Of a stretch of DNA of 64,000 nt, positions 5,893 through 56,600 are shown in pieces. The DNA is from Eledone cirrhosa. Its lineage: Eukaryota. The stretch is from the NCBI GenBank assembly GCA_964016885.1, contig OZ024748.1:47492001-47556000 (forward strand), given 5' to 3'. Below the pieces are notes generated by a model. That model worked only from the letters and a program-made list of their open reading frames with translations, was not told where the DNA came from and made no database searches. The stretch's first letter is position 1, and the number at the start of each line of letters is the position of its first letter. Made by a program: the position numbers and the translations under genes.

Positions 5893-6020
5893 TAGATAGA
5901 TATATTTATGTCTTTATTCTGTATTCATTATTTATTTATTAATAATGAATAAAAAATAAAGAAATAAAGAAAGATATATATCTATCATTCTCTCGATAGA
6001 TAGATAGATAGATAGATATA

Positions 6021-6101
6021 TTTCTTTTATTTGCCACTAGGGCATCAAAAGTGGGACAAGTACAATGGGGGGAGTTTACACAAAAAGGCGTCCTCAATAA
6101 G
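6021..6101 (-). mobile_element. 5'-truncated 3' end of a Tx1/L1-like LINE related to the 45.9-51.7 kb element, inside (GATA)n
   Basis: tttcttttatttgccactagggcatcaaaagtgggacaagtacaatggggggagtttaca aligns with tttctttatttaccataaaggcataaaaagaagggacaaatacaaagggggagtttaca at 45913. (GATA)n lies on both sides. Confidence 0.8.
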
Positions 6102-6150
<49 letters not shown>

Positions 6151-30904: not shown

Positions 30905-33150
30905 AAACACCACCATTAAAACCACTAGAATATTGAATGTGGCATCACCACAACACCGCCATTACAACTACTACAATATTGTAAACGCCATCATACAACA
31001 ACACCGCCATTACAATCACTACAATATTGTAAACGCCATCATACTACAACACTACCATTACAACCACTACAATATTGTAAATACCATCACCACAACACCG
31101 CCATTACAACCACTACAATATTGTAAATGTCTTCACCACAACACCACCATTACAACCACTACAATATTGTAAATGTCATCACCACAACGCCGCCATTACA
31201 ACCACTACAATATTGAAAATGTCATCACCACAACGCCGCCATTACAACCACTACAATATTGTAAATACCATCACCACAACACCGCCATTACAACCACTAC
31301 AATATTGTAAACGCCATCATACAACAACACCGCCATTACAACCACTACAATATTGTAAACGCCATCATACTACAACACTACCATTACAACCACTACAATA
31401 TTGTAAATGTCATCACCACAACGCCGCCATTACAACCACTACAATATTGTAAATACCATCACCACAACACCGCCATTACAACCACTACAATATTGTAAAC
31501 GCCATCATACAACAACACCGCCATTACAACCACTACAATATTGTAAACGCCATCATACTACAACACTACCATTACAACCACTACAATATTGTAAATGTCA
31601 TCACCACAACGCCGCCATTACAACCACTACAATATTGTAAATACCATCACCACAACACCGCCATTACAACCACTACAATATTGTAAACGCCATCATACAA
31701 CAACACCGCCATTACAACCACTACAATATTGTAAACGCCATCATACTACAACACTACCATTACAACCACTACAATATTGTAAAAGTCATCACCACAACGC
31801 CGCCATTACAACCACTACAATATTGTAAATACCATCACCACAACACCACCATTACAACCACTACAATATTGTAAACGCCATCATACTACAACACTACCAT
31901 TACAACCACTACAATATTGTAAATGTCTTCACCACAACACCACCATTACAACCACTACAATATTGTAAGTAACATCACCACAACACCGCCATTACAACCA
32001 CTACAATATTGTAAATACCATCACCACAACACCGTCATTACAACCACTACAATATTGTAAATGTCTTCACCACAACACTGCCATTACAACCACTACAATA
32101 TTGTAAATACCATCACCACAACACCGCCATTACAACCACTACAATATTGTAAATGTCTTCACCACAACACCGCCATTACAACCACTACAATATTGTAAAT
32201 ACCATCATACCACAACACCGCCATTACAACCACTACAATATTGTAAATGTCTTCACCACAACACCACCATTACAACCACTACAATATTGTAAATACCATC
32301 ACCACAACACCGCCATTACAACCACTACAATATTGTAAATACCATCACCACAACACCGCCATTGCAACCACTACAATATTGTAAATACCATCACCACAAC
32401 ACCGCCATTACAACCACTACAATATTGTAAATGTCTTCACCACAACACCGCCATTACAACCACTACAATATTGTAAATTTCATCACCACAACACCGCCAT
32501 TACAACCACTACAATATTGTAAATGTCTTCACCACAACACCGCCATTACAACCACTACAATCTTGTAAATACCATCACCACAACACCGCCATTACAACCA
32601 CTACAATATTGTAAATACCATCACCACAACACCGCCATTACAACCACTACAATATTGTAAATGTCTTCACCACAACACCGCCATTACAACCACTACAATA
32701 TTGTAAATACCATCACCACAACACCACCATTAAAACCACTACAATATTGTAAATACCATCACCACAACACCGCCATTACAACCACTACAATATTGTAAAT
32801 GTCTTCACCACAACACCGCCATTACAACCACTACAATATTGTAAATACCATCATACCACAACACCGCTATTACAACCACTACAATATTGTAAATGTCTTC
32901 ACCACAACACCGCCATTAAAACCACTACAATATTGTAAATGTCTTCACCACAACACCGCCATTACAACCACTACAATATTGTAAATACCATCACCACAAC
33001 ACCGCCATTACAACCACTACAATATTGTAAATGTCTTCACCACAACACCGCCATTACAACCACTACAATATTGTAAATACCATCACCACAACACCGCCAT
33101 AACAACCACTACAATATTGTAAATGTCTTCACCACAACACCGCCATTACC
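30905..33150. repeat. 46/48-bp minisatellite, about 48 copies
   Basis: Unit caacaccgccattacaaccactacaatattgtaaataccatcacca; 188-bp higher-order period around 31.2-31.8 kb. Confidence 0.95.
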
Positions 33151-36100
33151 ATCGTCAGAAACGCAGCAACAACCACAAGAAGAAGACTACCACAACACCA
33201 TCACTAAACACTACAACACCACCACAACTCCACCACCACAAAACCATCACTACACCACCACCACAACACCACTACCGGAACAACAACACTACTACAACCT
33301 CAACACCACATTACACCCAACATCACAACCAACACCACCATCATCGCAACCACCATCACACCATCATCATCACAACCAACACCACCACAACCGTCATCAC
33401 ACCCAACACCATCATCATCACAACCAACTCCACCATCATCACAAGCAACACCATCATCATCACAACCAACACCACCAGCATCACAACCAACATCACCAGA
33501 ACCACCATCATCACAACCAACACCACCATCATCACAACCCTCACCACCATCATCACAACCAACACAACCAACATCACAACCAACATCACCATAACCATCA
33601 TCATCACAACTAACATCACCACAACCATCATCAAACCCAACACCATCATCATCACAGCCAACATCATCATCATCACAACCAAAACCACCACAACCACAAC
33701 CAACCCCACAAACAACGTCACCATCATCACAACCACAACCATCACACCCATCACCACACACAACACCACCATCATCACAACCAACACCACCACAACCACC
33801 ACCACCACTACCACAACCAACACCACCATCACCACTACATCCAACACCACCACCATCACTATAACCAACAGACCCACATGTTGTTCCCCATGATAACATT
33901 GTATATTGTTGTTTTCATATTGTTGTTTTTATTAATTAATTAAAGAAGAAGAAGAAGAAGAAGAAGAAGAAGAAGAAGAAGAAGAAGAAGAAGAAGAAGA
34001 AGAAGAAGAAGAAGAAGAAGAAGAAGAAGAAGAAGAAGAAGAAGAAGAAGAAGAAGAAGAAGAAGAAGAAGAAGAAAGAGAAGTAAAAGAGGAGAGGAGG
34101 AGGGAGTGAAGAAGAAAAGAAGAAGAAGTGAAGGAGGAGGGAGTGCAGAAGAAGAAAGATAAGTAGAAAGAGAAGAAGGAGAGACTAAAGACAATATGAA
34201 GCCAGAGAAGGTATCAACGCGCTACGACATGGTCGCCATTTTGTAAAACAATTTCACGATATATATAAATACCCTTCAGTCATATTTCTTCTTTATGGGG
34301 ATTTTATGTGGCTTTTGTATGTACCACGGTTGTTGTTGTTGTTGTTGTCTTTATATATATTGTTGTTGTTGTTGTCTTTATATATATTGTTGTTGTTGTT
34401 GTCTTTATATATATTGTTGTTGTTGTCTTTATATATATTGTTGTTGTTGTTAATGTTGATGTTTTATTGTTGTTGTTGTCACTGTTACTGATATTGTTGT
34501 TGTTGTCGTTACTGTTATTGTTGTTGTTGTTGTCGTCGTCATTATTACTGTTATTGTTGTTGTTGTTGTCGTTACTGTTATTGTTGTTGGTGTCGTCGTC
34601 ATTATTACTGATATTGTTGTTGTTGTTGTCGTTACTGTTATTGTTGTTGTTGTTGTTGTCGTCGTCACTATTACTGTTATTGTTGTTGTTGTTGTTGTCG
34701 TCGTCACTATTACTGTTATTGTTGTTGTCGTCACTATTACTGTTATTGTTGTTGTTGTTGTTGTTGTCGTCACTATTACTGTTATTGTTGTTGTTGTTGT
34801 TGTTGTCGTCGTCACTATTACTGTTATTGTTGTTGTTGTTGTTGTCGTTGTCACTATTACTGTTATTGTTGTTGTTGTTGTTGTCGTCGTCACTATTACT
34901 GTTATTGTTGTTGTTGTTGTTGTTGTTGTTGTCACTATTAATGTTGTTGTTGTTGTCGTCACTATTACTCTTATTGTTGTTGTTGTTGTCACTATTAATG
35001 TTGTTGTTGTTGTTGTTGTCGTCACTATTACTCTTATTGTTGTTTTTCTTCTTAGCATTATTGTTATTGTTGTTGCTGATTTTGTCATTGTTACTGTTAC
35101 TGTTGTCATTGTTGTTGTTGCTGTTGTTGTTGTCATTGTTGTTGTTGCTGTTGTCATTGTTACTGTTGTCATTACAGTTGTTGCTGCTGTTGTTGTTGTC
35201 ATTGTTTTTATTACTGTTGTTGCTGTTGTTATTAGCGCTACCTTTTTGTTTGCTTTTGTTGTTATTTATGTTGCTATTCTTGCTGATGGCAAAGCTGATG
35301 GTGATGATGATGGTGATGATGATGGTAAAGCTGATGGTGATGATGATGCTGATGCTGATGGTAAAGCTGATGATGGTGATGATGATGGTGATGCTGATGG
35401 TAAAGCTGATGGTGATGATGATGGTAAAGCTGATGGTGATGATGATGGTGATGATGATGGTAAAGCTGATGGTGATGCTGATGGTGAAACTGATGGTGAT
35501 GATGATGGTAAAGCTGATGGTGATGATGATGGTAAAGCTGATGGTAAAGCTGATGGTAAAGCTGATGGTGATGATGATGGTAAAGCTGATGGTGATGCTG
35601 ATGGTGATGCTGATGGTAAAGCTGATGGTGATGCTGATTGTAAAGCTGATCGTGATGCTGATTGTAAAGCTGATGGTGATGATGATGGTAAAGCTGATGG
35701 TGATGCTGATGATGATGGTAAAGCTGATGGTGATGCTGTTGGTAAAGCTGATGGTAAAGCTGATGGTAATGCTGTTGGTAAAGCTGATGGTGATGATGAT
35801 GGTAAAGCTGATGCTGATGCTGAAGGTGATGATGATGGTAAAGATGATGGTGATGATGATCGTAAAGCTGATGGTGATGATGATGGTAAAGCTGATGGTA
35901 AAGCTGATGGTAAAGCTGATGGTGATGCTGATGGTAAAGCTGATGTGATGATGATGGCAAAGCTGATGGTAAAGCTGATGGTGATGATGATGGTAAAGCT
36001 GATGGTGATGCTGATGGTGATGCTGATGGTAATAATAATGCTGCTGTTGTCAAAGCTAATGACGTTTATATCATTGTCACATGATGTCGCTGTGGTTATT

Positions 36101-37456: not shown

Positions 37457-37566
37457 AGGAAGGAGCATGTGTATGCAGTGTCTGTCTGTGTGTCTACACG
37501 CCTAACTTTGTGAGTATTCCTTTATCTGAACTATTAATCACGTGGCAGTCAACAATAATACATAAC

Positions 37567-40500
37567 ACCGCCACCACCACTAGCAGCAGCACCACCACCA
37601 CTAGCAGCAGTAGTAGCAACACCACCACCACCACTAGCAGCAGCAGCACCACCACTAGCAGCAGTAGTAGCAACACCACCACCACCACTAGCAGCAGCAG
37701 CACCACTAGCAGCAGCACCACCACCACCACCACTAGCAGCAGCAACACCACCACTAGCAGCAGCAACACCACCACTAGCAGCAGCACCACCACCACCACC
37801 ACTAGCAGCAGTAGCAGCACCACCACCACCACCACTAGCAGCACCACAACCACCACCACTAGCAGCAGCACCACAACCAACACCACTAGCAGCAGCAGCA
37901 CCACAACCAACACCACTAGCAGCAGCACCACCACCACCACCACTAGCAGCAGCACCACAACCAACACCACTAGCAGCAGCAGCACCACAACCAACACCAC
38001 TAGCAGCAGCACCACAACCACCACCACTAGCAGCACCACAACCACCACCACTAGCAGCAGCACCACAACCACCACCACTAGCAGCACCACCACCACCACC
38101 ACTAGCAGCAGCACCACCACCACTAGCAGCAACACCACCACCACCACCACTAGCAGCAGCACCACCACCACCACTAGCAGCAACACCACCACCACCACCA
38201 CTAGCAGCACCACCACCACGACCACTAGCAGCAGCACCACCACCACTAGCAGCATCACCACCACCACTAGCAGCAACACCACCACCACCACCACTAGCAG
38301 CAACACCACCACCACCACCACTAGCAGCAGCACCACCACCACTAACAGCACCACCACCACCACTAGCAGCAACACCACCACCACCACTAGCAGCACCACC
38401 ACCACCACCACTAGCAGCAGCACCACAACCACCACCACTAGCAGCACCACCACCACCACCACTAGCAGCAGCACCACCACCACTAGCAGCAACACCACCA
38501 CCACCACCACTAGCAGCAGCACCACAACCACCACCACTAGCAGCACCACCACCACCACCACTAGCAGCAGCAACACCACCACTAGCAGCAGCACCACCAC
38601 TAGCAGCAGTAGCAGCACCACCACCACCACCACTAGCAGCACCACAACCACCACCACTAGCAGCAGCACCACAACCACCACCACTAGCAGCAGCACCACC
38701 ACCACCACCACCACCACTAGCAGCACCACAACCACCACCACTAGCAGCAGCACCACCACCACCACCACTAGCAGCACCACAACCACCACCACTAGCAGCA
38801 GCACCACCACCACTAGCAGCACCACCACCACCACCACTAGCAGCAGCACCACCACCACCACTAGCAGCAGCACCACCACCACTAGCAGCACCACCACCAC
38901 CACCACCACTAGCAGCACCACAACCACCACCACTAGCAGCAGCACCACCACCACTAGCAGCACCACAACCACCACCACCACTAGCAGCAGCACCACCACC
39001 ACCACCACTAGCAGCACCACAACCACCACCACTAGCAGCAGCACCACCACCACTAGCAGCACCACCACCACCACCACTAGCAGCAGCACCACCACCACCA
39101 CTAGCAGCAGCACCACCACCACTAGCAGCACCACCACCACCACCACCACTAGCAGCACCACCACCACCACCACTAGCAGCAGCACCACCACCACTAGCAG
39201 CAACACCACCACCACCACCACTAGCAGCAGCACCACCACCACCACCACTAGCAGCAGCACCACCACCACTAGCAGCACCACAACCACCACCACCACTAGC
39301 AGCAGCACCACCACCACCACCACCACTAGCAGCAGCACCACCACCACTAGCAGCAACACCACCACCACCACCACTAGCAGCAGCACCACAACCACCACCA
39401 CTAGCAGCACCACCACCACCACCACTAGCAGCAGCACCACAACCACCACCACTAGCAGCACCACCACCACCACCACTAGCAGCAGCAACACCACCACTAG
39501 CAGCAGCACCACCACCACCACCACTAGCAGCACCACCACCACCACCACTAGCAGCAGCACCACCACCACTAGCAGCAACACCACCACCACCACTAGCAGC
39601 AGCACCACAACCACCTCCACTAGCAGTAGCAGCACCACCACCACCACCACTAGCAGCACCACAACCACCACCACTAGCAGCAGCACCACAATCACCTCCA
39701 CTAGCAGCAGCAGCACCACCACCACCACCACTAGCAGCACCACAACCACCACCACTAGCAGCAGCACCACCACCACTAGCAGCAACACCACCACCACCAC
39801 CACTAGCAGCACCACCACCACCACCACTAGCAGCAGCACCACCACCACTAGCAGCAACACCACCACCACCACCACTAGCAGCAGCACCACCACCACCACT
39901 AGCAGCAACACCACCACCACCACCACTAGCAGCACCACCACCACGACCACTAGCAGCAGCACCACCACCACTAGCAGCATCACCACCACCACTAGCAGCA
40001 ACACCACCACCACCACCACTAGCAGCAGCACCACCACCACTAGCAGCAGCACCACCACCACTAGCAGCAACACCACCACCACCACCACTAGCAGCACCAC
40101 CACCACCACCACTAGCAGCAGCACCACCACCACTAGCAGCAACACCACCACCACCACCACTAGCAGCAGCACCACCACCACCACTAGCAGCAGCACCACC
40201 ACCACCACTAGCAGCAACACCACCACCACCACCACTAGCAGCACCACCACCACGACCACTAGCAGCAGCACCACTACCACTAGCAGCACCACCACCACCA
40301 CTAGCAGCAACACCACCACCACCACCACTAGCAGCAGCAGCACCACCACCACCACTAGCAGCAACACCACCACCACCACTAGCAGCACCACAACCACCAC
40401 CACTAGCAGCAGCAGCACCACAACCACCACCACTAGCAGCAGCAGCACCACAACCACCACCACTAGCAGCACCACCACCACCACCACTAGCAGCAGCACC

Positions 40501-40915
40501 ACCACCACTAGCAGCAACACCACCACCACCACCACTAGCAGCAGCACCACCACCACCACTAGCAGCACCACAACCACCACCACTAGCAGCAGCAGCACCA
40601 CAACCACCACCACTAGCAGCAGCAGCAGCACCACCACCACCACTAGCAGCAGCACCACCACCACCACCACTAGCAGCACCACAACCACCACCACTAGCAG
40701 CAGCACCACAACCACCACCACTAGCAGCAGCAGCACCACAACCACCACCACTAGTAGCAGCAGCAACACCACCACCACCACTAGCAGCAGCACCACCACC
40801 ACCAGCAGTAGCAGTACCAACACCACCACTAGCAGCAGTAGCAGCACCACCACCACCAGCAGTAGCAGTACCAACACCACCACTAGCAGCAGTAGCAGCA
40901 GTAGCAGCAGCAGCA
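37567..40915. repeat. 3.3-kb composite triplet array (ACC)n-ACT-(AGC)n
   Basis: Direct inspection; produces long low-complexity ORFs on both strands. Confidence 0.95.
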
Positions 40916-40987
40916 TAAGACATCCAATTGTCTGATCTGTTGATCACGTGGCACTCTAGAAACTGTAATATGTCGTTAAATAACGAC

Positions 40988-41730
40988 ATCATCACCATCA
41001 CCATCACCATCATCACCACAAACATCACCAACACAACCATCATCACCACAACCATCACCATCACCATCATCACCACAACCATCACCATCACCATCATCAC
41101 CACAACCATCACCATCACCATCATCACCACAACCATCACCATCACCATCATCACCACAACCATCACCATCACCATCACCACAACCATCACCATCACCATC
41201 ATCACCATCATCACCACAACCATCACCACAACCATCACCATCACCATCACCACCACAACCATCACCATCACCATCATCATCACCATCATCACCACAACCA
41301 TCACCATCACCATCATCATCACCACAACCATCACCATCATCACCATCACCATCACCATCATCACCACAACCATCACTATCACCATCATCACCATCATCAT
41401 CTCAACCATCACCATCACCATCACCATCATCATCACCATCACCACCACAACCATCACCATCACCATCATCATCACCACAACCATCACCATCACCATCACC
41501 ACCACAACCATCACCATCACCATCATCATCACCACAACCATCACCATCACCATCATCACCACAACCATCACCATCACCATCATCATCACCACAACCATCA
41601 CCATCACCATCATCACCACAACCATCACTATCACCATCATCACCATCATCATCTCAACCATCACCATCACCATCACCACCATCATCATCACAACCATCAC
41701 CATCATCATCTCAACCATCACCATCAACAT
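40988..41730. repeat. (ATC/ACC) composite triplet array
   Basis: Direct inspection. Confidence 0.95.
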
Positions 41731-45855: not shown

Positions 45856-45913
<58 letters not shown>

Positions 45914-46127
45914 TTCTTTATTTACCATAAAGGCATAAAAAGAAGGGACAAATACAAAGGGGGAGTTTACATATAATCGAGTAAAAAGGGTGTAACATGA
46001 AAATAATCGAAAATAACCTCAAAAGGGAGGGGACGTGATGGGGGTTGCACACACCCCCGAAAAAGTGTGCAATCCTTTGCCCGGGGAGCACATGGAGAAG
46101 GTGCTCCCCTCTCCTTTACTTCTTTAC

Positions 46128-49100
46128 CTACAGGATGGTATACAGAGAAGGCCCATTTACACGAGCCATTCTCGCCACTATCACCCACCTTTCATAAAAC
46201 TGCCTGTGGCCAAGCACCTCTCTCTCCATTCTTATCCTTCTTCCGAAGTGATATCGGAAGAAGTAGACCAGACTATGGCCAGAGAGGAAGTTGCCTGACC
46301 TCAGACCTTTCAATCGTGTCCACCAAACAACCTCTTTCAACATGGCTATTACGCACAGAAAAACCGCCTTTGCTTCCTTTGTGAAGAGGGGAGGCGGTTT
46401 GATTGTCATCACGGACTCGGCGGTCAATTTAATCGGCGCCACCCGCGACAGCAGTTGTTCGGCGTAGCCCCACAGATCAGCCACGCCAGGACATTGCACC
46501 AATGCGTGCGCCACGGTTTCTTCGTGACGCACGCATCTAGGGCAAATCTTTTTTGAGGGATCCCTGCCCGGGCGCCCGTGTCTGTAGAGCCTCTCTCGAA
46601 CGGGTAGAGCCCCTCGGTAGCACTGCCAGGCCAGTGACTTCTGGAAGTTGTCCATTGGTCCTGGGCCGAAAGTCCTACCGAACAGGCTGGCCAGTTCGTC
46701 TTCTTCCATGTCCAGCGACTCTCCAAGGGTGTCATCGCCCCTGCTAGCCACCAGCCCTCTATAGAATGATGAGGTGGATTCTCCACCGATGGCCCGGCCC
46801 GCTTGCCAGAGAGCCCTGAGCGCCTGAGCACACTCAGTGTGCCAGTCTCCCAGTTTTCCGGATCTTTGCTTGACCCAGGACTGTAGCTCGGTGAGTGAGA
46901 CGAGTCTCGGAAAGGCTCGTTTCACGAACGGAGCCCACACCGGTTGACCAGTGAGGAATACCTGTAGGTGCCGTAGCCTTAATGCGTGCCTACGCATCAT
47001 CAACCACGGCATCCCCAGCCCTCCTTTCGAAGGTTGTTGGCAGCAGATGGATCTTCTCACCATAGGAGGACGCTTCTTCCAAAGAAATTGGAAGAGCATG
47101 CGTTCCATGGTGGTGAGTGTTTCCTTAGGGCAAGGCACGACAGTCAGGCGGTAGTAAGTGACGGACGCTATGTAAATGTTCGCCACCTCCGCCCGGCCTT
47201 TTAGGGACAGCTTACACTTGGCCCATTTCTGGGTTAGTGCAAACACCTTGTTCGTAACCTCGTTCCAGTTCTTTTCCACCTGGAGGTCCGGTCCAAACCA
47301 GACCCCAAGCAACTTTACCGGGCCCTCCGTCCAGTGTCCGACGACACCGTCAGGAGGCATCGGTTTGCCTCTCCACGTTCCGAGTTGCAGCCCGATGGAT
47401 TTTTCCAGGTTCAGTTTCGCTCCTGACAACCTTTCGTACTCCTCCAGTAAGGTACCGATCGCCTCGATCTCCGAGTCGGTTGATACCATTACTGTTACGT
47501 CATCGGCGTAGGCCGACACTGCTTTGCTCAATCCTGGTTCCAGGGGGATACCCTGCAACAACTCCAACTTCCTCAGTAAAGGCTCGAGAGTCAATACGTA
47601 CAGAAGGGAGGAGAGAGGGCACCCCTGTCGAATGGATCGTGTGATTTCGAACGGCTTCGAAAGGTAGCCGTTCACCTTGATCCCAGAACAGATGTGGTTG
47701 CTATGTAGGGCAGTGATCCAGCCTCTGAAAACAGGACCGAACCCAGCCGCCGCTAGCACCGCATCCAGGTAACCATGGTCGACCCTATCGAAGGCCTTAG
47801 ACTGATCCAAGTTGATCAGGGCTCCACCGAAGCCGGGTTTGTTGCCAACCCTCTCTATGATGTATCGCATGAGGTGGAGGTTATCGTGAATGGACCCGGA
47901 TGGGATAGCACATGTCTGCGCATCTCCCACCAGGCCACCCACGACAAGCGCCAACCTCTTTGCTAACACCTTGGCCAAAATCTTTAACTCTGTGTTTAGC
48001 AGGGTTATGGGCCGAAAATTATTTATACTATCCCCCTTGTTCTCGTCCTTCCTCACCAGCGTGACTACGCCCTTGGCTACAGAACAAGGAATTCTCCCGT
48101 TCTGCTGCCAATTGCAGTAGACCGCTTCGAGGAGTTCGGAGAAGAAGACCGGCATTGCTAAATAAAGTTCGTAAGGTATACCATCGAGACCTGGAGATTT
48201 GCGTCTGCTGCATTGGCTCAGCGCATCTCCGATCTCATCAGCCGAGATTGGTCCCTCGCAGGACTCTGCCTCTTTGTTCGAGAGACGCGGCAGGCCGTCG
48301 AGGTATGGACCGAAATCCACGCCCCGGCCCGGACCCTCGCCTCCCCCGAACAATCGGGCAAAGTGCTTTTGAAAGGCCTCGCACATCTGCTTAGGCTCCC
48401 GGATCACTCGTCCATCTTCGTCTTGCAACGACCGGATGGTGGATCGATTTCCACTTTTAGCTTCTGTCACGCGGGCCCATCCAACGGCTTTGGCCCCCTC
48501 ATTACCTAGAGCACGTATTTTACTTCGAATGACGCAGCCTTCATGCTTTGCATCGAAAAACTGGTTCAAGGCCGTCCTCGATGCCAGCACTCTGGCCACA
48601 TCTTCGCTCTTGATTGCCTCTTCTAATTTACCTGTTAATTCTTTCTCGTTTCTATTCCTATTGGCAGCTAACATCTTGCTATAACTTATTGATTCTGTTC
48701 TAATCTCTCTTTTGAGAGATGCCCACCATCGGTTGTTGACGATTGCACCCGTCAACCTCTCCTTAACTAATCTGCTAATCCGGTTTCTGTAAGTCTCTTT
48801 TGCCGGTAAAGACAAATTAAGTTTCCAGTAACCGGGACCCTGTCTATGTGTTTTCTCGAGATTGACCACGCAGGTCACTAATTTGTGATCCGTGTAGCCA
48901 ACCGTGCGCATTTCTGGACAGCTTAATATGTCCCTATCCTTACTTCTAACTAAGAATCTATCTAAGTACGATCTAGATTGACCACTGTGGTTTCTCCAAG
49001 TCCAGGTAGGCACAGTTGGAAAATCTAGTCGATATCTATCGACCAAGTTAAAACGGTCGAGTAACCCCTTGAGGCTGTTACACCCCCCTCTATTAGGACA

Positions 49101-49565
49101 TGCTCCTGCATAGTCCCAACGTGCATCCAGGATGTCATTCCAATCCCCCGCTAGAAGCAGGGAACGCGACGTTCCCAGAAAAGTCTCCAAACGCTGGAAG
49201 AAGTCGGGCCGTTCAGCTCCGAAAGGGGAGTAGACGGCGACCAGTCTCAAGGCCGCACTTTCACTACTGCCAACGTCTAGCACCAACAAACGACCCTCCG
49301 GGTCCGAGTGCACAACCTGTACGGCAAGACCCAGGTGTTTTTGCAGCAGCACGACAACCCCACCCCCACCTCCAGGTTGACAGAGAGATGCATGCACTTC
49401 AAAGTCATCGAAGGTGGGAGCCAGCTGCCGCATGACGCTGATTCGAGTCTCACAGATAACCATTACATTTATACTACATGACCTGAGGTCATTTAGAAGC
49501 TTTGCTTGCTTCCAAGTTGAGCCCAGGCCACGTGCATTCAAACATCCTACTCTTAACACATCCAT
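46128..49565 (-). CDS. LINE ORF2: APE endonuclease, RT and C-terminal zinc finger (Tx1/L1 clade)
   Basis: APE motifs LNARGL, ICETR, LAGDWN, SYLDRF and TDHK; Tx1-type GPGYWKLN; RT motifs KSPGLDG, FRPITLLN, LDQSKAFDRV, RQGCPLS and AYADD; CPRC...HALVQC. 1145 aa, uninterrupted. Confidence 0.97.
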   Translation of the reverse strand: MDVLRVGCLNARGLGSTWKQAKLLNDLRSCSINVMVICETRISVMRQLAPTFDDFEVHASLCQPGGGGGVVVLLQKHLGLAVQVVHSDPEGRLLVLDVGSSESAALRLVAVYSPFGAERPDFFQRLETFLGTSRSLLLAGDWNDILDARWDYAGACPNRGGCNSLKGLLDRFNLVDRYRLDFPTVPTWTWRNHSGQSRSYLDRFLVRSKDRDILSCPEMRTVGYTDHKLVTCVVNLEKTHRQGPGYWKLNLSLPAKETYRNRISRLVKERLTGAIVNNRWWASLKREIRTESISYSKMLAANRNRNEKELTGKLEEAIKSEDVARVLASRTALNQFFDAKHEGCVIRSKIRALGNEGAKAVGWARVTEAKSGNRSTIRSLQDEDGRVIREPKQMCEAFQKHFARLFGGGEGPGRGVDFGPYLDGLPRLSNKEAESCEGPISADEIGDALSQCSRRKSPGLDGIPYELYLAMPVFFSELLEAVYCNWQQNGRIPCSVAKGVVTLVRKDENKGDSINNFRPITLLNTELKILAKVLAKRLALVVGGLVGDAQTCAIPSGSIHDNLHLMRYIIERVGNKPGFGGALINLDQSKAFDRVDHGYLDAVLAAAGFGPVFRGWITALHSNHICSGIKVNGYLSKPFEITRSIRQGCPLSSLLYVLTLEPLLRKLELLQGIPLEPGLSKAVSAYADDVTVMVSTDSEIEAIGTLLEEYERLSGAKLNLEKSIGLQLGTWRGKPMPPDGVVGHWTEGPVKLLGVWFGPDLQVEKNWNEVTNKVFALTQKWAKCKLSLKGRAEVANIYIASVTYYRLTVVPCPKETLTTMERMLFQFLWKKRPPMVRRSICCQQPSKGGLGMPWLMMRRHALRLRHLQVFLTGQPVWAPFVKRAFPRLVSLTELQSWVKQRSGKLGDWHTECAQALRALWQAGRAIGGESTSSFYRGLVASRGDDTLGESLDMEEDELASLFGRTFGPGPMDNFQKSLAWQCYRGALPVRERLYRHGRPGRDPSKKICPRCVRHEETVAHALVQCPGVADLWGYAEQLLSRVAPIKLTAESVMTIKPPPLFTKEAKAVFLCVIAMLKEVVWWTRLKGLRSGNFLSGHSLVYFFRYHFGRRIRMEREVLGHRQFYERWVIVARMARVNGPSLYTIL

Positions 49566-49598
49566 GTGGGCGGCAGAGCCAAAGGAGAGTGTAGAGAC

Positions 49599-51479
49599 CT
49601 ACCTTTCCGCTTCCCGGGGTTCGGGTTGCACGACTTCCATGGGGTCGGGGGTGTTGGGTGAAGGGGTGTCTTGTGGTGGTGTGGGGTCGTCGGTGTGTGG
49701 TGGGGTTGGGGTGTTTGGAGTTGTGTTGGGGAGGGGAAGGGGAGGGGGAAAGCTTTTTAGTAGGACGCGGTTTATGGGTTTGACAGAGGGTGGTCCTACG
49801 TCCTCCTTAAAATCCTTTTTTAGTTTTTGGTAGAGGTTCATTGGGATTTTTATTAGTTTTAAATGTGGGTGGTTTTCTGATGAAACAAAGTTTACACCTT
49901 GGGTTTGTACCGAAGGATTATTGTATATGAGTTCATTTAATTTATTATTGTTTCTGTTGATGTAAGTATAGTGTAATGTCTTTTTTTCCGATGGTGTGAG
50001 TGTTTCGAAGAGGGGAGGGGCAGGTTTGGTTTTGTTTGTTGCTGGAGGGGTGTTTTCTGTTTTGTTAGATTGTGTTGCGATTTGGGTGGGGGTTGTTTGT
50101 CCTTGTGTGTTTTGCACATGTTTTCTTTTTTTCCTTTTAATCTGTCTGAAGGACTCCGTTTCTTCCTCCGAATTCGTTGGGTTATCTTCAGTGTTGGAGG
50201 GAAGAGGTATGTTTGCTGGTAATGTTTCCGTGTTGGTTTTCTTTGTGGGGGAGATGGATGTCACTATGTTAGACTGTGTTGTGTGTTGTGTCTGCGGTGG
50301 TTGTGTTGTTTTATTGAGTGAGAGGTTGGGTGGGCCTGTATTTTGTTTTGGGGTAATGTGTTGTGACTGTTTGTGTTGTGGTGGTGTTGTGGTGTTACTG
50401 AGGGACGGGTTGGGTGGGACTGAGTTTTGTTGTTTGTTTATCTGTTGTGGTGGTGGTGGTGGAGCTGGTGTTGGTAGCAGAGTTTTCTTTTTGTTGAGTT
50501 GTGGACAAGCGGCCTTCAGGTGCCCTCTGCCTGCACAGATATGGCAGGACGGCCTTCTCCCCTCCACGCTAATGTTTATATACCCGTGGTCCTCTAATAG
50601 GATTCTGTCGGGTATTTGGGCGATGCGTTCAGGCTTCATTTGTACTACCAGCTCTATACCTGTTCCACTGAACGCATTGCCTGTGGTTTTCCCAATGGAA
50701 ATCACGTTGTCATTCACTGGATCGATGAAGCCAGCTATGAGCCAGCAGTAGTCCACATCTGGCATCATTGCATCCAGCCATATGCGTTGAGTTTTTTTTC
50801 CCATATAAGATGGATAAAAGGTGAAATTTTTCGAACGAATCGGTGACAAAGCACATTTTTTTGCCGCCGATTCGTTCTTCATGATAATTGCTAGGCTTCC
50901 ATACAGTCTGTCTTTTCTTATGAAAGTTGTTTCATTCAGTACTTCTGCGAGTACTGTTTTGATATCTGCTTGAGAAGGCTGTTCAGGTTTTTTTGTACTG
51001 TTGTTGATGGTCCGAAACTTGACCGTTCGGCTTTCAATGTCTTTCGTGAATTCTTGAGGCATTTTTACCAATAAAATACCATTCTCACCTTCACTTATGT
51101 ATTGTTTTGCGTCCGTGATCCTTCGTACCACATCTGAAATGTTTTCCGCTATATAAGTCAAAGATTTCTTTGTTTTCTGTGCAAATGAAATCTGGTCGTC
51201 TGCTTTGTTTTCTGATATGATGTTATTTTCAACTGTTATTTTTTTGTTTGTTGTGTCTTTGTTTGTGTTATTAGTATTGTCATGCAATTTTTCAAATTTT
51301 TTTTTTTCGTTGTTTTCGTCATTTAATTTTTTTTCCTCCGCAGATTCGTCCGTTTTTATTTTCATTTTTCCTTCCTTCTCTATGACGTTAGTTGGGAAGG
51401 AAGGGAGGACTAAAGCGTGCGAGCTTACAACTCTTACCGCTGTCCCCCCACCACTATTTTCGTTCGCTGCGTTTAACAT
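49599..51479 (-). CDS. LINE ORF1: gag-like protein with a CCHC zinc knuckle and a Pro/Thr/Gln-rich C-terminus
   Basis: VEGRRPSCHICAGRGHLKAACP (CX2CX4HX4C); lies upstream of ORF2; 626 aa, uninterrupted. Confidence 0.92.
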   Translation of the reverse strand: MLNAANENSGGGTAVRVVSSHALVLPSFPTNVIEKEGKMKIKTDESAEEKKLNDENNEKKKFEKLHDNTNNTNKDTTNKKITVENNIISENKADDQISFAQKTKKSLTYIAENISDVVRRITDAKQYISEGENGILLVKMPQEFTKDIESRTVKFRTINNSTKKPEQPSQADIKTVLAEVLNETTFIRKDRLYGSLAIIMKNESAAKKCALSPIRSKNFTFYPSYMGKKTQRIWLDAMMPDVDYCWLIAGFIDPVNDNVISIGKTTGNAFSGTGIELVVQMKPERIAQIPDRILLEDHGYINISVEGRRPSCHICAGRGHLKAACPQLNKKKTLLPTPAPPPPPQQINKQQNSVPPNPSLSNTTTPPQHKQSQHITPKQNTGPPNLSLNKTTQPPQTQHTTQSNIVTSISPTKKTNTETLPANIPLPSNTEDNPTNSEEETESFRQIKRKKRKHVQNTQGQTTPTQIATQSNKTENTPPATNKTKPAPPLFETLTPSEKKTLHYTYINRNNNKLNELIYNNPSVQTQGVNFVSSENHPHLKLIKIPMNLYQKLKKDFKEDVGPPSVKPINRVLLKSFPPPLPLPNTTPNTPTPPHTDDPTPPQDTPSPNTPDPMEVVQPEPREAER

Positions 51480-51712
51480 TTCTGTTAGACGATTGAAATT
51501 TTTTACACAAAATTTTTTAAAACAGGTTTTTCACCTCTAGGAGGGGTAAAGATGAGCTGACCCACCGCCTGACAGTTCAGACGGAGGGTCAAGCTACACA
51601 ATTGTATCAAAATTAAGTTTGAACTCACAAAATTTCCTCAATAAATTTGAACAAAACTTCTGTGCGAAGTGAATGACATCCACACTGTAGAACAGACGAC
51701 AGCTAGATTAAT

Positions 51713-51764
<52 letters not shown>

Positions 51765-52075: not shown

Positions 52076-52171
52076 CAGCAGCAGCAGACTCACACTTTCA
52101 GAGTTTCACACAATTGTGTCTCACACTGTCACATGTATACACAGTCACATTTCGACATCCTCAACCTGACA

Positions 52172-53245
52172 CAGCTACACTGCCTCCGTGTCACACTCTC
52201 TCAGGCAGTCACGCTGTCACATAGCAGTGTCTCATTTCTACATACTCTCACTATGTCACAGTTACACTGCCTCCGTGTCACACTCTCTCAGGCAGTCACG
52301 CTGTCACATTTCAGTGTCTCATTTCTACATACTCTCACTATGTCACAGTTACACTGCCTCCGTGTCACACTCTCTCACGCTGTCACGCTGTCACATTTCA
52401 GTGTCTCATTTCTACATACTCTCACTATGTCACAGTTACACTGCCTCCGTGTCACACTCTCTCACGCTGTCACGCTGTCACATTTCAGTGTCTCATTTCT
52501 ACATACTCTCACTATGTCACAGTTACACTACCTCCGTGTCACACTCTCTCACGCTGTCACACTGTCACATTTCAGTGTCTCATTTCTACATACTCTCACT
52601 ATGTCATAGTTACACTGCCTCCGTGTCACACTCTCTCAGGCAGTCACGCTGTCACATTTCAGTGTCTCATTTCTACATACTCTCACTATGTCACAGTTAC
52701 ACTGCCTCCGTGTCACACTCTCTCAGGCAGTCACGCTGTCACATTTCAGTGTCTCATTTCTACATACTCTCACTATGTCACAGTTACACTACCTCCGTGT
52801 CACACTCTCTCACGCAGTCACGCTGTCACATTTCAGTGTCTCATTTCTACATACTCTCACTATGACACAGTTACACTGCCTCCGTGTCACACTCTCTCAC
52901 GCAGTCACGCTGTCACATTTCAGTGTCTCATTTCTACATACTCTCACTATGTCACAGTTACACTGCCTCCGTGTCACACTCTCTCACGCAGTCACGCTGT
53001 CACATTTCAGTGTCTCATTTCTACATACTCTCACTATGTCACAGTTACACTGCCTCCGTGTCACACTCTCTCAGGCAGTCACGCTGTCACATTTCAGTGT
53101 CTCATTTCTACATACTCTCACTATGTCATAGTTACACTGCCTCCGTGTCACACTCTCTCACGCTGTCACACTGTCACATTTCAGTGTCTCATTTCTACAT
53201 ACTCTCACTATGTCATAGTTACACTGCCTCCGTGTCACACTTACT
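52172..53245. repeat. 87-bp minisatellite, about 12 copies
   Basis: Unit cactgcctccgtgtcacactctctcaggcagtcacgctgtcacatttcagtgtctcatttctacatactctcactatgtcacagtta. Confidence 0.95.
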
Positions 53246-53659
53246 CACGCTATCACACTGTCACACAGTGTCACATTACCACATGCTGTCACACAGTGTT
53301 ACACTCCCACATACTCTCACTGTCACACATGTTTACTGCCTCAGTGCCACACTTACACAGTGACACATCATTAAAACATGACACTTACACAGAATCACAT
53401 AATGTCACCACACACTACCCCCCCCCACCCAGCCTCGCTCACACATTGTCACACGGTGTCAGAATGCCAGACAATGTCACTCTTTACGACAGTTTCACAC
53501 TGTCATACAGTATTTCACCATTACAACGTCACACTTCCTCACACTGCCGCTCAGTCACCCTTACACATTGTCACACTACCACACAGAGTGTCAGACAATG
53601 TCACATAACGCGAAACAGCCATCCTGTGTCACACATTTCCACATCATTACAATGTCACA

Positions 53660-56600
53660 CTTCCACACCCTACGGCCCCGAGTGACAGGCAATGTCACAC
53701 AATGTCAAACAGCCATCCTGCGTCACACATTTCCACACCCTACGGCCCCGAGTGACAGGCAATGTCACACAATGTCAAACAGCCATCCTGCGTCACACAT
53801 TTCCACACCCTACGGCCCCGAGTGACAGGCAATGTCACACAATGTCAAACAGCCATCCTGCGTCACACATTTCCACACCCTACGGCCCCGAATGACTGGC
53901 AATGTCACACAATGTCAAACAGCCATCCTGCGTCACACATTTCCACACCCTACGGCCCCGAGTGACTGGCAATGTCACACAATGTCCAACAGCCATCCTG
54001 CGTCACACATTTCCACACCCTACGGCCCCGAGTGACAGGCAATGTCACACAATGTCAAACAGCCATCCTGCGTCACACATTGTCACACCCTACGGCCCCG
54101 AGTGACAGGCAATGTCACACAATGTCAAACAGCCATCCTGCGTCACACATTGTCACACCCTACGGCCCCGAGTGACAGGCAATGTCACACAATGTCAAAC
54201 AGCCATCCTGCGTCACACATTGTCACACCCTACGGCCCCGAGTGACAGGCAATGTCACACAATGTCAAACAGCCATCCTGCGTCACACATTGTCACACCC
54301 TACGGCCCCGAGTGACAGGCAATGTCACACAATGTCAAACAGCCATCCTGCGTCACACATTGTCACACCCTACGGCCCCGAGTAACAGGCAATGTCACAC
54401 AATGTCAAACAGCCATCCTGCGTCACACTTCCACACCCTACGGCCCCGAGTGACAGGCAATGTCACACAATGTCCAACAGCCATCCTGCGTCACACATTG
54501 TCACATCCTACGGCCCCGAGTGACAGGCAATGTCACACAATGTCCAACAGCCATCCTGCGTCACACATTTCCACATCCTACGGCCCCGAGTGACAGGCAA
54601 TGTCACACAATGTCCAACAGCCATCCTGCGTCACACATTTCCACATCCTACGGCCCCGAGTGACTGGCAATGTCACACAATGTCAAACAGCCATCCTGCG
54701 TCACACATTGTCACACCCTACGGCCCCGAGTGACAGGCAATGTCACACAATTTCCAACAGCCATCCTGCGTCACACATTGTCACACCCTACGGCCCCGAG
54801 TGACAGGCAATGTCACACAATGTCAAACAGCCATCCTGCGTCACACATTGTCACACCCTACGGCCCCGAGTGACAGGCAATGTCACACAATGTCAAACAG
54901 CCATCCTGCGTCACACATTTCCACACCCTACGGCCCCGAGTGACAGGCAATGTCACACAATGTCAAACAGCCATCCTGCGTCACACATTTCCACACCCTA
55001 CGGCCCCGAGTGACTGGCAATGTCACACAATGTCAAACAGCCATCCTGCGTCACACATTTCCACACCCTACGGCCCCGAGTGACTGGCAATGTCACACAA
55101 TGTCAAACAGCCATCCTGCGTCACACATTTCCACACCCTACGGCCCCGAGTGACAGGCAATGTCACACAATGTCAAACAGCCATCCTGCGTCACACACTT
55201 CCACACCCTACGGCCCTGAGTGACTGGCAATGTCACACAATGTCAAACAGCCATCCTGCGTCACACATTTCCACACCCTACGGCCCCGAGTGACAGGCAA
55301 TGTCACACAATGTCAAACAGCCATCCTGCGTCACACATTTCCACACCCTACGGCCCCGAGTGACTGGCAATGTCACACAATGTCAAACAGCCATCCTGCG
55401 TCACACATTGTCACACCCTACGGCCCCGAGTGACAGGCAATGTCACACAATTTCCAACAGCCATCCTGCGTCACACATTGTCACACCCTACGGCCCCGAG
55501 TGACAGGCAATGTCACACAATGTCAAACAGCCATCCTGCGTCACACATTGTCACACCCTACGGCCCCGAGTGACAGGCAATGTCACACAATGTCAAACAG
55601 CCATCCTGCGTCACACATTTCCACACCCTACGGCCCCGAGTGACTGGCAATGTCACACAATGTCAAACAGCCATCCTGCGTCACACATTTCCACACCCTA
55701 CGGCCCCGAGTGACTGGCAATGTCACACAATGTCAAACAGCCATCCTGCGTCACACATTTCCACACCCTACGGCCCCGAGTGACAGGCAATGTCACACAA
55801 TGTCAAACAGCCATCCTGCGTCACACACTTCCACACCCTACGGCCCTGAGTGACTGGCAATGTCACACAATGTCAAACAGCCATCCTGCGTCACACATTT
55901 CCACACCCTACGGCCCCGAGTGACAGGCAATGTCACACAATGTCAAACAGCCATCCTGCGTCACACATTGTCACACCCTACGGCCCCGAGTGACTGTCAA
56001 TGTCACACAATGTCAAACAGCCATCCTGCGTCACACATTTCCACACCCTACGGCCCCGAGTGACAGGCAATGTCACACAATGTCAAACAGCCATCCTGCG
56101 TCACACATTTCCACACCCTACGGCCCCGAGTGACAGGCAATGTCACACAATGTCAAACAGCCATCCTGCGTCACACATTTCCACACCCTACGGCCCCGAG
56201 TGACAGGCAATGTCACACAATGTCAAACAGCCATCCTGCGTCACACATTTCCACACCCTACGGCCCCGAGTGACAGGCAATGTCACACAATGTCAAACAG
56301 CCATCCTGCGTCACACACTTCCACACCCTACGGCCCTGAGTGACTGGCAATGTCACACAATGTCAAACAGCCATCCTGCGTCACACATTTCCACACCCTA
56401 CGGCCCCGAGTGACAGGCAATGTCACACAATGTCAAACAGCCATCCTGCGTCACACATTGTCACACCCTACGGCCCCGAGTGACTGTCAATGTCACACAA
56501 TGTCAAACAGCCATCCTGCGTCACACATTTCCACACCCTACGGCCCCGAGTGACAGGCAATGTCACACAATGTCAAACAGCCATCCTGCGTCACACATTT

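Follow-up and report, generated by a model that had tools for sequence, protein, structure and literature searches.

A young L1-group LINE of Eledone cirrhosa that inserts mainly into TATC/GATA microsatellites

When a retrotransposon is bounded at both ends by the same microsatellite, is that repeat its target or something that it has made itself? The question is raised by a 64,000-nucleotide stretch of the Eledone cirrhosa genome (contig OZ024748.1, positions 47,492,001 to 47,556,000; hereafter the window), in which positions 45913-51712 of the minus strand hold an intact 5,800-bp long interspersed element (LINE) of the L1 group with two uninterrupted open reading frames, ORF1 and ORF2. The initial annotation of the window had correctly described a full-length element with both frames open and a GATA array at each end, here counted as 13 TATC units on the 3' side and 12 on the 5' side, and it had read the repeat as an insertion target. 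Copies from the 3.0-Gb genome searched bear this out. The element very probably represents a young, multi-copy family of the L1 group, likely of the Tx1 clade, whose insertions share one orientation and fall at TC^TAT(C/A)T (the caret marks the cut), mostly within (TATC)n/(GATA)n, and whose apurinic/apyrimidinic endonuclease (APE) likely recognizes and nicks the GATA strand.

The 3' flanks of the family are nearly uniform. The genome contains 1,571 exact matches to a 22-mer from the 3' end, and 1,513 of these ends run straight into TNTATMT; a poly(A) tail is therefore absent. The 5' side was scored for a perfect TATC run of at least 8 nt in the 30 nt that precede the junction. Set A, the best 40 of 962 candidates matching the 3' untranslated region (UTR), chosen without use of the flanks, has such a run in 31 copies (20 of 20 full-length, 11 of 20 truncated) and none in the opposite orientation. 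Set C, 40 loci from the first 100 exact 3'-end matches and enriched for truncated or odd copies, has it in 25 of the 38 that could be scored (13 of 16 full-length, 12 of 22 truncated; L184 and L193 were unscorable), with one run in the opposite orientation. The two sets together give 56 of 78 copies with the run and a single reversed case. In the same sets, 42 of the 78 copies are truncated at the 5' end, a share raised by the make-up of set C, and 23 of these 42 have TATC directly at the break. Ten further copies retrieved by their 5' end, a biased sample, all show TATC.

These frequencies stand far above the genomic background. A TATC run is found at 0.24% of 57,000 positions drawn from 20 evenly spread 10-kb stretches and at 0.66% of positions in the window; against the former value, the 31 of 40 in set A has a binomial p of about 1e-73. 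In the random sample, (TA)n makes up 12,032 bases and (TATC)n 80 (both strands), an excess of about 150-fold, yet only one copy in 78 (L185) has pure (TA)n on both sides. A published definition calls a LINE target-specific when one sequence type makes up more than 20% of its flanks (PMC4494074), and both the 5' count (56/78) and the 3' count (1,513/1,571) lie above that value. Locus L183 has an array on its 5' side only, while L166, L175 and L198 have none, so the repeat is not an added tail. The TATC repeat is host DNA and the target of insertion. Mostly non-GATA 5' flanks, which the annotation had named as the finding that would speak against a target, were looked for and not seen.

Target-site duplications narrow the site further. 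At 27 of 88 scored sites, picked by eye, the duplication includes non-repeat bases; it measures 4-23 nt with a median of 17, and 13-23 nt in 25 of the 27. The consensus of the empty sites (n=27) reads T26 C24 ^ T27 A27 T27 C23/A4 T26 A20 T27, and L166, L175 and L198 carry perfect 17-18 nt duplications in array-free DNA. The core target is thus the short TC^TAT(C/A)T, for which a single TATC unit suffices. The proposed GATA specificity consequently stands as a strong preference for arrays and falls as a strict requirement for them. The accompanying idea of a site-specific insertion tool loses much of its appeal, since a core of about 7 bp that occurs and is used outside arrays makes a poor single-site tool.

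The junctions also indicate which bases come from which molecule. The two bases that follow the element's 3' end, AATAAAGAAA, are TC or TA whether or not the target matches them, and so derive from the RNA; since A can also occupy the fourth target position, that base is copied from the host. With RNA-derived bases before it and a host-copied fourth base after it, the first nick likely falls within TAT. To the left of the cut, TC is present at 10 of 12 targets of copies whose junction starts TA and at all four sites outside any repeat (L082, L166, L175 and L198). Pairing with the RNA cannot reach these bases, and their retention speaks for recognition by the protein. The duplications end in freely varying sequence, and distance therefore probably determines where the second nick is made.

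A mechanism consistent with these data begins from the TATC found on both sides of copies together with duplications of 13-23 bp. The ORF2 protein (ORF2p) would nick the GATA strand inside the motif's TAT, with the TpA step as the most likely place; a cut at this sole TpA step would leave AGAT on each side of the nick. Transcription would continue beyond AATAAAGAAA for a few bases of the flanking repeat, and the resulting UAUC end would pair with the freed GATA-3'OH and prime reverse transcription, which would account for the lack of poly(A) as well as for the constant orientation. The second nick lies some 17 nt from the first and has no sequence requirement. As each insertion would duplicate the target, own and sister copies could stack head to tail and may seed new arrays. 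Copies do often adjoin older copies, giving head-to-tail runs. Runs of at least three full-length copies were seen at L062/L063 and L078/L079, and the identical junctions of L062/L063 suggest duplication by unequal exchange, not separate insertions. Sequence-specific nicking by a Tx1 endonuclease is already established for Tx1L, as reported in PMC1950540.

The window copy and its flanks are laid out as follows (window positions; aa, amino acids).

45859..45912, minus strand: 3' flank, (TATC)13 on the element strand, target-derived, containing a target-site duplication of unmeasurable length
45913..46127, minus strand: 3' UTR, 215 nt, ending in AATAAAGAAA, without poly(A)
45917-45922, minus strand: AATAAA within the 3' UTR
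46128..49565, minus strand: ORF2, 1,145 aa, with APE endonuclease, reverse transcriptase (RT) and C-terminal CCHC
46491..46544, minus strand: C-terminal CCHC knuckle of ORF2, aa 1008-1025, CX2CX8HX4-type (Pfam zf-RVT, E 8e-6, slightly below the curated cut-off)
47301..48032, minus strand: RT core, aa 512-755, with YADD at aa 686 (Pfam RVT_1, E 2e-26)
48846..49565, minus strand: APE endonuclease domain, aa 1-240, catalytic motifs intact (Pfam, E 6e-8)
about aa 190-199 of ORF2: beta6-beta5 hairpin loop of the APE domain
49566..49598, minus strand: pyrimidine-rich spacer, 33 nt, from the ORF1 stop to the ORF2 ATG
49599..51488, minus strand: ORF1, 629 aa, with one CX2CX4HX4C knuckle (aa 315-328) and a long P/T/Q/N-rich tail
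51489..51712, minus strand: 5' UTR, whose first 4-6 nt differ among copies
51713..51763, minus strand: 5' flank, (TATC)12 on the element strand

The ORF1 region that precedes the CCHC knuckle is likely an RNA recognition motif. The end of the 3' UTR has a weak predicted fold (-9.2 kcal/mol, calculated without a control).

Related families in the same genome allow protein and target to be compared. At least five TATC sister families, recognised in the flanks of copies and with 73-85% ORF2 identity to the window element, form one clade (support 99 in a quick RT tree). The 3' end pattern shared by the whole lineage has 31,934 matches, against 124 for a control pattern, and a hand count of what follows it in the first 100 matches gives about 31 TATC, 40 ATT, 12 a third sequence and 17 other.

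The ATT family (L258-L277) serves as an internal control. Its ORF2 is 66% and its endonuclease 60% identical to those of the window element; with 6,936 exact 35-mers it outnumbers the TATC family studied about fourfold, and it has at least two types of 5' UTR. ATT follows the 3' end in nearly all of its first 30 matches. On the 5' side, scored by eye, (ATT)n is present in 17 of 20 copies against a background of 0.46%, and TATC in none of the 20 (L267 has another sequence, L276 is short and L269 is unresolved).

The third family (L278-L289), with 79% ORF2 identity, is placed inside the TATC clade. Its copies lie in a 72-bp tandem repeat at one fixed position, where ACTC is followed by TATAT; the repeat is present on both sides at 12 of 12 loci, and 332 of its 334 3' ends have an identical junction. 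The 5' side bears about 60 bases of the 72-bp unit, and the repeat may in part travel with the element. One six-copy head-to-tail run of this family was seen at G000:C1:4228981-4259405, and on C1-C3 nearly all copies among the matches listed lie towards contig ends.

The endonucleases of these families, in a tree that took in four TATC families, differ to very different degrees: 32 positions are fixed between the TATC and ATT families, hairpin loop included, against 6 between the TATC families and the third. The hairpin loop has been linked to target choice in the Tx1L work (PMC1950540). These comparisons bear directly on an alternative in which the endonuclease is loose, accepting any TpA where DNA is AT-rich, and in which pairing of the read-through UAUC end mainly decides the site, so that the target is inherited through the flank. 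Such a scheme would fit the near invariance of the three to five target bases just beyond the cut, with which an RNA end would pair. It would also fit a 3' end motif that is common to all families while the sequence after it differs, and a 72-bp-repeat family that uses another site with only 6 fixed endonuclease differences. It accords poorly with the TC conserved left of the cut, also at TA-junction copies and at sites outside repeats, and with the many fixed differences, in the loop and elsewhere, of the (ATT)n family. A loose endonuclease is unlikely on this evidence, though far from negligible.

Several points weigh against recognition of the GATA strand by the endonuclease as proposed here, or limit the counts behind it. 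The hairpin loop of the 72-bp-repeat family is nearly that of the TATC families, and the site must therefore depend on more than the loop. No 8-nt TATC run is found on the 5' side of 22 of the 78 copies; some of these are short-motif sites with duplications, and about a dozen copies have neither TATC nor a duplication (for example L023, L069, L071, L075, L081, L172 and L194). Most of the latter are truncated and may have lost target DNA. L167 and L195 (2/78) have (TC)n 3' flanks. All 78 scored copies come from one chromosome, three pairs of loci (L001/L002, L062/L063, L189/L192) have a junction in common and do not count as independent, and the choice by eye of 27 of 88 duplication sites favours imperfect arrays.

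A wider role for the lineage can be proposed more tentatively. The first 21 arrays of at least 7 TATC units listed for the largest chromosome include 14 that adjoin a lineage member, 13 of them in the orientation expected and 1 inverted; this sample was scored by eye at one chromosome end and is not random. It is conceivable, if somewhat doubtful, that this recently active lineage, with its roughly 32,000 3' ends, divides the host's repeats among its families (at least five on (TATC)n, at least one on (ATT)n and one on the 72-bp site), that a few endonuclease residues and the RNA end switch the target, and that, through duplication of the target at each insertion, the lineage is the main builder and occupant of long GATA arrays.

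Two other kinds of sequence were seen around these sites. L290 and L291 (G000:C1:10448544 and 17247871) have lineage-type 3' ends followed by non-repeat sequence, with no ORF match in the 6.5 kb upstream; they may represent short non-autonomous elements or a further class of target. A palindromic element of about 400 bp, resembling a miniature inverted-repeat transposable element, is present at L073, L083, L215 and six more loci. Its end adjoins a LINE-holding TATC array in 8 of the first 100 loci and at L156, and it also occurs in (TA)n.

A second insertion in the window belongs to this lineage, in the arrangement below.

5995..6020, minus strand: 3' flank of the short copy, two bases and then (TATC)6
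6021..6101, minus strand: 5'-truncated 3' end of sister family B, 81 nt, young (98.8% identity to five family-B loci)
6102..6149, minus strand: 5' flank of the short copy, (TATC)12, extending to about 6248

The initial annotation had taken this piece for a diverged copy of the main family with (GATA)n on both sides and the same orientation as the full-length element. Flanks and orientation are as described; the affiliation is not. A blastn search at E 1e-3 gives no match between the piece and the full window element, while 80 of its 81 nt agree with the 3' end of family B, whose ORF2 is 83% identical to that of the window element. The piece is therefore a young copy of a sister family and not a decayed one of the main family.

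The main family itself bears the marks of recent movement. Against 1,571 exact 3' ends, the exact 22-mer of the 5' end occurs 754 times, so roughly half of the copies extend to the 5' end. Fifteen fetched copies are more than 99% identical to the window copy over 5.7 kb, and both ORFs are open at 10 of 46 full-length loci, a count that includes two tandem duplicates and is possibly lowered by assembly indels. Judged from these sequences, the GATA-targeting family is recently active, which backs the earlier view of the element as potentially active. A metagenome scan returned 3 distant loci at 24-34%. Near-identical pieces of the element were seen in sequencing-run contigs of three organisms (word shares 0.87-0.26), and the family may be common to related species.

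Assignment to the L1 group follows from the N-terminal APE, an RT nearest to L1 ORF2p, the C-terminal CCHC, the target-site duplications and the 5' truncation. Among solved proteins, human L1 ORF2p is the best match to ORF2 (E 9e-51 over aa 8-855), ahead of R2 (E 1e-19). An alignment-based structural model of the endonuclease (aa 1-240; mean predicted confidence, pLDDT, 95) has the L1 endonuclease (L1-EN) as its top fold match, with a template-modelling (TM) score of about 0.8; the 11 best fold matches are all L1-EN, a coarse guide, as other clades are poorly represented in the PDB. Among named proteins, one from Argonauta hians comes closest, at 67% over the RT region. Two features of vertebrate-type L1, a Transposase_22 ORF1 and a poly(A) tail, are both lacking: ORF1 has no Pfam match, Transposase_22 included. 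In a protein atlas, ORF1 lies near zf-CCHC clusters (0.92) and ZCCHC3 RNA-binding domains (0.89), which serves as a lead only.

Membership of the Tx1 clade is likely. Alternatively, the element could insert in the manner described yet belong to a separate branch of the L1 group, confined to invertebrates, in which microsatellite targeting arose independently of that in Kibi and Koshi. In the RT tree the lineage joins proteins with about 50% identity to it, at a support of 97, and stands away from turtle and fish proteins; full-length identity to proteins beyond that group is about 30%. The hairpin loop has 9 residues as in L1, against eleven in Tx1L (PMC1950540), and the known microsatellite-targeting Tx1 families treated in PMC4494074 use polypyrimidine repeats. 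That tree, however, is quick and midpoint-rooted and contains no named Tx1 reference: the relatives in it are unnamed or 'hypothetical' proteins, and named Tx1 proteins were absent from the protein-search, cluster and atlas matches. The apparent type I ORF1, with CCHC and without Transposase_22, is consistent with Tx1 in non-mammalian animals (PMC5203782), although not exclusive to Tx1. In addition, the supplement of PMC13282606 lists 80 L1-Tx1 families in Octopus vulgaris, and gastropod elements of the L1 superfamily are classed as Tx1 in PMC11203168. Taken together, a non-Tx1 origin appears improbable but has to be kept in view. A large group of ORF2 relatives with about 50% RT identity (P0077-P0147) was also seen in ENA assemblies, some clusters having hundreds of members on long contigs.

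The remaining alternative, that (TATC)n is a mere reverse-transcription tail and the 5' arrays arise from insertion beside older copies or from passive accumulation, can point to the many copies that adjoin the 3' end of an older lineage member and to the tail-generated microsatellites known for RTE elements (cited in PMC9115989), but it is largely refuted and most improbable, given that copies with unique duplications (L166, L175, L183 and L198) have no tail past the duplicated bases, TATC stands right at the 5' break in 23 of 42 truncated copies, orientation is fixed with one exception in 78, and the ATT sister family of the same genome has TATC flanks in 0 of 20.

Other features of the element and the window were recorded alongside. 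A splice-donor-like motif (G then GTRRGT, with TAA, TAG or TGA inside) spans the end of ORF1 at window positions 49595-49604 and occurs in every lineage family (L208, L210, L218, L219, L221, L226, L269 and L278), in all of which a pyrimidine tract and a similar start context follow it; the more distant relative L105 lacks the motif. Spliced retrocopies from this motif numbered 0 among the first 100 of 884 matches, and L294 is one internally deleted copy whose breakpoint lies away from it. Read-through of the lone in-frame TAG between ORF1 and ORF2 was considered and rejected, as the sister families do not keep the frame. Elsewhere in the window lie long minisatellites (30906-33149, 35282-36030, 37566-41726 and 52076-53685), with units of 46 bp (x48), 12/36 bp, and 24-51 bp in CAC/TAG-rich arrays of more than 3 kb; the array near 52.1-53.0 kb was recognised through its repetitive reading frames. 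As far as tested, these arrays are unrelated to the LINE.

Among known systems, human L1 makes duplications of a length similar to those found here. Dong belongs to the R4 type and carries an endonuclease of another kind. Human L1 ORF2p (PDB 8sxt, 1vyb) is the best match in sequence and fold and has the same catalytic motifs; unlike human L1, the window element lacks poly(A), has an apparent type I ORF1 and uses TCTATCT where L1 uses TTTT/AA. Kibi and Koshi, of the teleost Tx1 clade, are likewise APE-RT LINEs of the L1 group that insert into microsatellites, namely (TC)n and (TTC)n (PMC3812793, PMC4494074). Their repeats are polypyrimidine; here the site is TC^TAT(C/A)T in TATC repeats, with (TC)n at just two 3' flanks, the host is an octopod and the window family has about 1,500 copies. 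The crocodilian Tx1 families on (TTCC)n/(TTTC)n (PMC4494074) share the tetranucleotide preference and the presence of several related families per target; their repeat is a different one, and in the present lineage some siblings insert into (ATT)n or a 72-bp repeat. Tx1L of Xenopus offers a comparable sequence-selective APE, with AGTT after its nick and AGAT on the strand predicted to be cut here, yet its target is one site in a DNA transposon and its loop has 11 residues instead of 9 (PMC1950540). Waldo on (ACAY)n, Mino on (AC)n and Dong on (TAA)n are further microsatellite-targeting non-LTR elements (PMC3812793), of which Waldo and Mino belong to the R1 clade. Dong, listed as Dong-R4 in PMC13282606, uses the same TAA/ATT repeat class as the ATT sister family (PMC3812793).

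In the literature searched, neither a LINE that targets TATC/GATA nor an analysis of targeting by cephalopod Tx1 came up; Repbase, Dfam and the supplements of PMC4494074 lay outside that search, and an existing entry is possible. At the genomic level, the GATA target is a well-supported addition to the known microsatellite-targeting APE LINEs. A 2013 review describes the mechanism of microsatellite targeting by such elements as not well understood (PMC3812793). Intact young families with 66-85% ORF2 identity and three different targets provide a natural set with which to separate protein read-out from RNA-primer pairing. The findings also suggest that a single LINE lineage shapes the locations of GATA and ATT microsatellites in a repeat-rich genome of the cephalopod type, an effect that matters to those who use such microsatellites as markers.

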